A DNA stretch of 10,110 nucleotides from a virus (IMGVR_UViG_2529293240_000015:1-10110); one strand, 5' to 3'. Shown: positions 8,200-8,648, counted from the stretch's first letter. Made by a program: numbers and translations. The notes: generated by a model not told the origin, from the sequence alone.

Positions 8200-8304
8200 A
8201 TGAATAAAAAGCGGTAATTAATACTGCTGTTTCATTTGAAGCGCGAAAGCTAAAGTTTTCGCATTTATCGTGAAACGCTTTCGCGTTTTTCGTGCGCCGC
8301 TTCA
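8200..8304 (+). other. Mu-type right end (attR) with transposase-binding repeats
   Basis: ...GAAGCGCGAAAGCTAAAGTTTTCGCATTTATCGTGAAACGCTTTCGCGTTTTTCGTGCGCCGCTTCA ending at 8304 matches the recalled Mu right end; terminal CA. Extent is approximate. Confidence 0.75.
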
Positions 8305-8309
8305 CCCAG
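8305..8309. repeat. Right copy of 5-bp target-site duplication CCCAG
   Basis: Identical to 35..39; abuts the phage right end. Confidence 0.85.
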
Positions 8310-8648
8310 CCGTTCATAGGCAATTGGCTTAATGAGATAATCAAATACACCACAACGTACGGCTTCAGACACCGTTTCCATATCACTGGCTGCAGTGGTA
8401 AACACCACGTCGCCGGGATAATGCGCCTGCACCAGTTCATGCAGTAAATTAATCCCTCTACCGTCAGGAAGATAGTTATCGAGCAAGATTAGCCCCGGCT
8501 TAAAACGCTCGATCATCATTCGGGCCTGCGCCAGGTTTCCCGCCAGTAATATCTGACTGAATCCGGGAATGTGACGAATATATTCCGCATGCATCTCTGC
8601 CAGCGGCGTTTCGTCCTCAACGATCAATAGGGTTAATGGAGCTGTCAT
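8305..8648 (-). pseudogene. dpiA: dpiA (citB) response regulator, 5' part (receiver domain, residues 1-115) interrupted by the Mu-like insertion
   Basis: MTAPLTLLIVEDETPLAEMHAEYIRHIPGF...LILLDNYLPDGRG...DYLIKPIAYERLG is a CheY-like receiver domain (Asp57 and Lys107 present). The track ORF continues 12 codons into the phage end (EAAHEKRESVSR) to a stop at 8265. The C-terminal DNA-binding part is displaced to the other side of the element (1..39 and beyond). Confidence 0.85.

Follow-up and report, generated by a model that had tools for sequence, protein, structure and literature searches.

Mu-type phages are classic insertional mutagens, and pseudogene formation driven by phages and insertion sequences (IS) is the norm in Shigella. 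The element described here, a prophage that splits the response regulator gene dpiA, shares with insertions of Mu, D108 and SfMu a 5-bp target-site duplication, TG...CA termini, a c-ner-A block on the left, a gin-com-mom block on the right and a target gene left in two collinear halves; in contrast to SfMu, the element is degraded, truncated by IS600 and only 8.3 kb long. An earlier report describes cryptic remnants of SfMu both in S. boydii and in S. flexneri (serotypes 1a, 3a, 3b, 6, X and Y), and the part of it that was searched names no insertion site (PMC4406740). Searches of the literature for dpiA (citB) in connection with Shigella, prophages or pseudogenes yielded no paper naming dpiA as an insertion site, and the specific dpiA::Mu event appears to be undescribed, although the sequences are public.

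The CitA/CitB (DpiB/DpiA) two-component system has been described as the main activator of the citrate fermentation genes of E. coli (PMC9456408, citing Yamamoto 2008), and DpiA as required for dpiBA-dependent SOS induction and short-term beta-lactam survival (PMC6863773, citing Miller 2003, 2004). Compared with E. coli DpiA (receiver plus HTH_64 domain) and its kinase DpiB, the present locus has the same DpiA residues 1-115, the same operon layout and the same 32-nt overlap of the two genes, but the output domain is detached, the last two-thirds of helix α5 are replaced and dpiB is a pseudogene.

Two further comparisons concern the shortened open reading frame, hereafter dpiA'. The receiver of MaeR, a Cit-family response regulator of Lactobacillus casei (PDB 5LWK and 5LWL), has the (βα)5 fold and forms an α4-β5-α5 swapped dimer (PMC5457438). 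Unlike dpiA', the MaeR receiver is a deliberate construct that keeps the whole of α5. Natural single-domain phosphate sinks are known, for example the second CheY in some chemotaxis systems. Like these, dpiA' is CheY-sized (127 aa), receiver-only and encoded beside a histidine kinase gene; however, natural sinks are conserved genes that operate alongside a second regulator of the same kinase, whereas dpiA' is an insertion accident in one descent group with a decaying kinase. The IS600 and IS1 insertions, deletions and nonsense mutations seen here in a metabolic regulon are the same as those of Shigella genome reduction in general, and nothing in them is distinctive.

The dpiA::Mu junctions and the chimeric reading frame

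The window, that is, the whole stretch of 10,110 nt that was analysed, is 100% identical to contig AFOW01000008.1 of S. flexneri J1713 (GCA_000217895.2; for J1713, see PMC6397287), the only contig on which the truncated transposase ORF of the window was found. Its features are listed in Table 1. Two independent lines place the right host/phage boundary at 8304|8305, namely the break in the BLAST alignments to 5,420 E. coli records (query base 155/156) and the alignment to phage SfMu, which extends to the final base of that phage; to the right of it the sequence matches dpiA in the 5,420 E. coli records, and to the left it matches mom-containing Mu-like prophages. The left junction is at 39|40. 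The initial annotation of the window had made its reading depend on the fragment at the left edge being dpiA, and the exact match to the K-12 gene bears this out. The CCCAG duplication, the TGTATTG...GCTTCA ends and the collinear dpiA halves together lead to the conclusion that a Mu-family element transposed into codon 115 of dpiA. The dpiA::Mu junction is represented by the 44-mer CGTTTTTCGTGCGCCGCTTCACCCAGCCGTTCATAGGCAATTGG.

Table 1. Features of the 10,110-nt window around the prophage remnant in dpiA
Feature	Coordinates	Strand	Remarks
3' half of dpiA, beginning (codons 114-126, LGQTLTRFRQRKH)	1..39	-	Reverse complement is exactly K-12 dpiA nt 340-378
Target-site duplication CCCAG, left copy	35..39	.	
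Mu/SfMu-type prophage remnant, 8,265 bp	40..8304	+	Ends 5'-TGTATTG...GCTTCA-3'; megablast and Pfam
Mu-type repressor c (169 aa), apparently intact	376..885	-	PF02316
ner	1048..1302	+	PF13693
Transposase A remnant, frameshifted, 3' end cut by IS600	1277..2909	+	Pfam MuA domains
IS600 (IS3 family, 1,264 bp)	2910..4173	+	ORFs; boundaries from a second IS600 copy in locus L018
Tail-fibre S 3' fragment, then U, U', S'v (invertible G-segment genes)	4174..6970	.	SfMu, Mu and P7 matches; PF12604, PF02413, PF21446
gin remnant, 65 aa, truncated invertase	7064..7261	+	PF00239, positions 2-63 of 145 only
com and mom, both apparently intact	7337..8189	+	PF10122; PF25680 at 251.6 bits
Chimeric ORF dpiA' (127 aa, ATG start)	8265..8648	-	DpiA 1-115 plus 12 Mu-encoded residues
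Prophage right-end (attR) bases in dpiA'	8265..8304	-	Phase 2: third base of codon 115, EAAHEKRESVSR, stop
Target-site duplication CCCAG, right copy	8305..8309	.	
dpiB codons 56-552, pseudogene remnant	8617..10110	-	Open over the 497 visible codons

Residues 1-115 of dpiA' show no difference from K-12 DpiA (226 aa), and the two sequences diverge from residue 116, where the foreign tail EAAHEKRESVSR, followed by TAA, begins. Given the boundary at 8304|8305 and the stop codon at 8265-8267, the frame ends 40 nt inside the phage. The initial annotation had described a frame with a 12-residue phage-encoded tail ending at this distance from the junction, and its coordinates and translation are correct; the comparison with an intact dpiBA locus that it proposed, carried out with K-12, likewise agrees in the identical residues 1-115, the unchanged 32-nt overlap and the collinearity of the halves. 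Of the three phases in which the Mu right end can be read, phase 0 stops at once, phase 1 runs for 44 residues and phase 2 yields the 12-residue tail. The tail is an incidental reading of the Mu right end entered after the second codon base and not an evolved feature, no more than chance would give. An 89-aa ORF across the junction (8171..8440, minus strand) results from reading the phage end in phase 1 and was dismissed as almost certainly spurious.

Distribution of the junction

The exact 127-aa protein is present in NCBI as a Shigella flexneri response regulator or DpiA on 699 contigs. Carriers of the junction include S. flexneri 3a FDAARGOS_713, S. flexneri K-1770, S. boydii 600080 (clade 1a) and several NCTC assemblies, and an intact 226-aa DpiA is present in some Shigella. 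Among 5,426 complete E. coli genomes, which include laboratory strains, not one spans the junction, and an exact scan of the GTDB species representatives for the right junction gave no match, presumably because Shigella has no separate representation among them. In all carriers examined the dpiA' frame is identical, and, judged against the complete E. coli genomes, it does not occur outside this descent group; since the carriers were retrieved by searching for the exact sequence and belong to nearly clonal lineages, the identity of the 127 codons is uninformative.

The identical dpiA::Mu junction common to S. flexneri and S. boydii 600080 suggests one ancestral insertion or recombinational transfer. 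S. flexneri and S. boydii clade 1a are usually assigned to different Shigella clusters. The surroundings of the junction vary. In the S. boydii-type loci (CP026810 and S. boydii 600080) the remnant adjoins a phage integrase and the mod-gal region. In most S. flexneri sampled, for example S. flexneri 5 str. 8401 (CP000266; locus at approximately 1-7900), the order is dcuC, the 3' half of dpiA, the Mu left end, c, ner, truncated A and IS600, followed by inverted Mu-like head genes (capsid, protease, MuF, portal); the two dpiA halves are no longer neighbours in these genomes, which points to an IS600-mediated inversion or rearrangement. Unrelated truncated dpiA alleles are also found in E. coli (P0033, P0026, P0016, P0031), for example several forms of 161 aa and a frameshift form of 117 aa that has 93 member sequences. 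DpiA stubs reduced to the receiver thus arise repeatedly, and some of them may be assembly errors.

Probable decay of the DpiBA module

We consider it very likely that the split dpiA is a fixed insertional pseudogene and that the output of DpiBA has been lost with it. An ancestor of several Shigella lineages acquired an SfMu-type phage of the Mu family in codon 115 of dpiA, with the 5-bp duplication; the 5' part now comprises 115 native residues followed by the 12 residues and the stop that the phage end happens to encode, with the HTH_64 domain 8.3 kb away. The prophage subsequently decayed by the insertion of IS600 in A, a deletion from inside A to inside S, truncation of gin and a frameshift in A, and dpiB is broken by a nonsense mutation (Q39*) in J1713 and by other mutations in other carriers. 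The DpiBA module as a whole would be eroding in the manner typical of Shigella genome reduction, with dpiA' as at most a weakly expressed receiver-like polypeptide that has no maintained function. Because the receiver fragment cannot bind DNA, every DpiA output should be lost, which would include the induction of citCDEFXGT and the DpiA-dependent induction of the SOS response by beta-lactams. A loss of regulation through DpiA had been proposed at the outset, and the separation of the receiver from HTH_64 by a Mu-type insertion upholds it.

The part of dpiB within the window differs from K-12 by two amino acids, and at the nucleotide level it has only the 17 differences from K-12 that are common to all carriers; the overlap of 32 nt with the start of dpiA is as in K-12. 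The initial annotation had described dpiB as open over the visible 497 codons and overlapping dpiA, which is accurate inside the window but does not extend to an intact gene: in J1713, codon 39 is changed from CAA to TAA, 51 nt beyond the window edge. This Q39* is unlikely to be an error and unlikely to disappear from J1713 on resequencing, since two independent NCTC assemblies, 99.9% identical to the window, have it as well. The 497-codon frame corresponds to a remnant ORF that gene callers annotate from M56, and a product initiated there would be devoid of the N-terminal hydrophobic segment of DpiB. Hence the intact DpiB that directly precedes the regulator gene in the CitB/DpiA family is missing in the source genome, and the pairing of a live kinase with a stand-alone receiver, which the initial annotation had made contingent on dpiB being undisturbed outside the window, does not hold there.

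Other carriers have other lesions. Three S. flexneri assemblies are frameshifted at codon 491 by a 1-nt deletion, CP026810 has Q223*, and the NCTC pair has Q361* on top of Q39*; S. boydii 600080, with 552 intact codons, is the sole carrier with an intact dpiB among those examined. The gene is thus inactivated in three of the four carrier lineages by at least three independent knock-outs, and the derived changes (three nonsense, one frameshift, four missense, one synonymous) are the signature of a gene that is no longer under purifying selection. A 530-aa truncated DpiB (P0121) has the K-12 haplotype and was set aside as unrelated to the carriers; a homology search with the DpiB fragment retrieved almost only full-length clusters from Citrobacter and E. 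coli.

The high share of nonsense mutations allows a different reading, which we regard as improbable although it is the strongest of the alternatives, namely that the state with a receiver-only protein and an orphan kinase is harmful through costly cross-talk or futile phosphorylation, and that dpiB knock-outs were positively selected, the dpiA' frame itself being devoid of function. Nonsense mutations account for 3/8 of the derived dpiB substitutions, beside the independent frameshift, against a neutral expectation of 2.4-4.8% from codon content (P ~0.0007 to 0.005 in a post hoc test on four lineages, in which one of the nonsense mutations, Q361*, is a second hit that struck an already dead gene). 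Three independent first lesions of dpiB occurred in the four lineages, and the neighbouring cit structural genes of the same genomes are mostly intact, as judged by length, apart from an IS1 at citF in one NCTC strain and, in S. boydii 600080, a change of W to stop late in citG. However, in a control with citT and most of citG aligned as DNA, which yielded 1 nonsense, 6 missense and 5 synonymous changes, the difference from dpiB was not significant (Fisher P 0.26 to 0.32). Four single-base deletions in C/G homopolymers of the citT/citG region of CP026810, all within 700 nt, are probably long-read assembly errors and were not counted. Furthermore, pseudogenes accumulate genome-wide in Shigella, and dpiB is still intact in S. 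boydii 600080. If true, this would be a natural case of 'clean-up' selection, which acts on the remaining half of a two-component system once its partner has been lost.

A further observation concerns citC of J1713 (locus L021, 19196-20254), which has a 1-nt deletion at nt 46 followed by early in-frame stops, so that gene callers start the gene later (335 aa); the deletion may be a homopolymer error of the draft assembly.

The receiver domain and the position of the break

The dpiA' product keeps the acidic pair D12/E13, the phospho-acceptor D57, T85 at the end of β4 and K107 at the end of β5, two of which, Asp57 and Lys107, had been singled out in the initial annotation. Its only Pfam domain is Response_reg (PF00072), aligned at residues 8-117 with 71.8 bits (cut-off 30.2; 70.6 bits for native DpiA), whereas native DpiA also has HTH_64 at residues 162-226. 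The removal of the DNA-binding output domain is thereby confirmed, HTH_64 being absent from the 127-aa ORF and located on the far side of the prophage.

The earlier placement of the break after the receiver domain is correct for the Pfam model, which ends within the first turn of helix α5, but not in structural terms. The MaeR receiver (PDB 5LWK), the closest solved structure (E = 2e-18), aligns to DpiA 6-124, and the residues that are at least 90% conserved in the alignment of DpiA relatives are Y111, R113, L114, L118 and R120, of which L118 and R120, in α5, are replaced by phage-encoded residues in dpiA'. Because the MaeR alignment reaches DpiA 124 and these two conserved residues lie beyond the junction, the 115/116 break is placed by sequence comparison inside α5 of the receiver fold and not beyond the domain. 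About five or six native residues of this helix are left (111-115 of helix 111-126), and the last two-thirds are foreign. AlphaFold2 predicts for dpiA' a complete (βα)5 fold (mean pLDDT 91) with a helix at 111-126 that continues into the foreign tail, and pLDDT drops to 71 across the last 7 residues. In this prediction the tail appears compatible with a helix, which says nothing on stability, and a folded, phosphorylatable product remains conceivable.

These properties bear on the possibility that dpiA' is a functional stand-alone receiver, whose folded product would receive phosphate from DpiB or from another kinase by cross-talk, for example DcuS, and would have been selected as a phosphate sink or decoy. 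Helix α1 and the β5-α5 loop are the usual kinase-docking surfaces in complexes of histidine kinases and response regulators, and both are native in dpiA'. In addition to the retained catalytic residues, the undiminished Pfam score and the confident model with its helical tail, the dpiB/dpiA overlap, which would permit translational coupling, is preserved, and one carrier, S. boydii 600080, has the full-length dpiB. Nevertheless, we judge this proposal to be very unlikely. The cognate kinase is a pseudogene here and has been independently inactivated in at least two further carrier lineages, and the stop at codon 39 should also lower the coupled translation of dpiA'. The foreign tail is an accident of reading phase, and the frame is confined to one clonal descent group. 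A phosphate sink also presupposes a functional kinase that serves another regulator, and to our knowledge no second response regulator of DpiB exists for a sink to modulate. Finally, L118 and R120 are replaced in α5, and α4-β5-α5 is the dimer interface in MaeR, the closest solved relative (PMC5457438).

The initial annotation had left open whether the protein acts as a phosphate sink or is non-functional; with dpiB broken and the kinase/receiver pair not intact, the sink is unsupported and loss of function is the part that stands. Judged by sequence, dpiA' would be classified as a receiver domain and neither as a DpiA-family regulator, in which HTH_64 is fused C-terminally to the receiver, nor as a maintained phosphate sink.

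The 3' half of dpiA

The 3' remainder of dpiA (M127-G226), with HTH_64, lies beyond the left edge of the window, where gene callers annotate a 100-aa ORF that starts at M127 and adjoins dcuC (L021, L019, L009-L018). The dpiA frame meets a stop three codons into the Mu left end, which precludes a fusion protein, and an ORF running from the phage into the 3' half was accordingly ruled out. The HTH_64 half could still be imagined to be expressed by read-through from the prophage repressor gene, as a DNA-binding protein independent of phosphorylation: c is intact and directed towards the dpiA fragment, there is no terminator-like site on that strand from c to the junction, the ORF is annotated, and in 10 S. 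flexneri loci the 111 residues past the junction match K-12 without a difference. This identity, over 342 nt among near-clonal genomes, is uninformative, however, and, apart from the early stop in the Mu left end, no Shine-Dalgarno-like sequence is present within 30 nt before M127. Expression of the 3' half thus seems unlikely from the sequence, and its action as such a regulator is more improbable still than that of the stand-alone receiver.

The prophage remnant

The inserted element has the duplication and termini of the Mu family and its gene order, c-ner-A ... S/U G segment-gin-com-mom. In megablast comparisons it is 94.7% identical to phage SfMu over its right half, up to the last base of SfMu, with additional matches to Mu, D108 and Yersinia Mu-like phages, and the Pfam families Mu c, Ner, MuA, Com and Mom are represented. 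The exact c repressor protein occurs in 6,687 blocks of public assemblies, compared with 780 for the chimeric DpiA'.

A complete, transposition-competent Mu genome is not present, the length being 8.3 kb compared with 37.1 kb for SfMu. In the transposase remnant, the match to the Mu-transpos_C model stops at position 50 of 61, and an additional G at 1339, which the NCTC relatives (L019, L020) lack, causes a frameshift, such that the ORF has 484 aa from a TTG start in the window as opposed to 544 aa in these relatives. The IS600 copy has 99% identity to elements that plasmid records annotate as 'IS3-like element IS600 family transposase'. Through this copy, A is connected straight to the 3' part of the tail-fibre gene S, the genes normally located between A and S being absent, with no B, head or non-fibre tail genes between IS600 and the S fragment. 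The gin region is approximately 400 bp shorter in the window than in SfMu. As A is cut and frameshifted and everything between A and S is missing, the element is immobile and the disruption of dpiA permanent. The inserted phage is therefore a dead remnant inherited by descent and not a recent insertion. A recent or laboratory Mu lysogeny, with an active prophage freshly mutating dpiA, can be practically dismissed despite the perfect Mu-type ends and target duplication, in view of the reduction from the ~37 kb of SfMu by IS600 in A, the A-to-S deletion, the truncated gin and the frameshifted A, of the identical junction inherited in many Shigella genomes of two named species, and of its absence from the complete E. 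coli genomes.

Several further features of the remnant were observed. The A-IS600-S join indicates that most of the prophage, roughly 29 kb relative to the 37.1-kb SfMu, was lost in an IS-associated deletion, and this exact arrangement is found in only three further public contigs. Given the truncated gin, the G segment, with its S/U and S'/U' tail-fibre sets, is presumably frozen in one orientation. The com and mom genes appear intact although the remnant has no other late-function genes. In the closest relatives, UGYT01 and UGYQ01, an IS1 is inserted in the Mu left end at window positions 267-275, where J1713 has none; these relatives otherwise differ from the window at 10-13 positions and by one single-base gap in 9.8 kb. 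Read-through from dpiBA would run antisense to mom, with no terminator-like site on the minus strand after the dpiA' stop. The Mu right-end repeats 3' of mom (8210-8285, plus strand) contain three overlapping terminator-like hairpins, which are consensus matches only (5 found against 1.4 expected); promoter-like and terminator-like matches in the window are at or near background and carry no weight. An Rfam search of the window gave no match.

Implications

The deposited annotations of this locus call for caution: the 127-aa ORF is recorded as 'two-component response regulator DpiA' and the 497-aa dpiB frame is called a gene, although both are pseudogene fragments. The junction itself is a clean and irreversible marker, which could serve in lineage typing and in addressing questions of common ancestry among the Shigella clusters. 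The overall significance is modest, and the locus represents ordinary gene decay and not a new signalling device. For the biology of the carriers, the split of dpiA explains at the sequence level why these Shigella cannot regulate the citrate fermentation genes via DpiBA, and the carriers should also be devoid of the SOS response to beta-lactams that, as described for E. coli, depends on DpiA.
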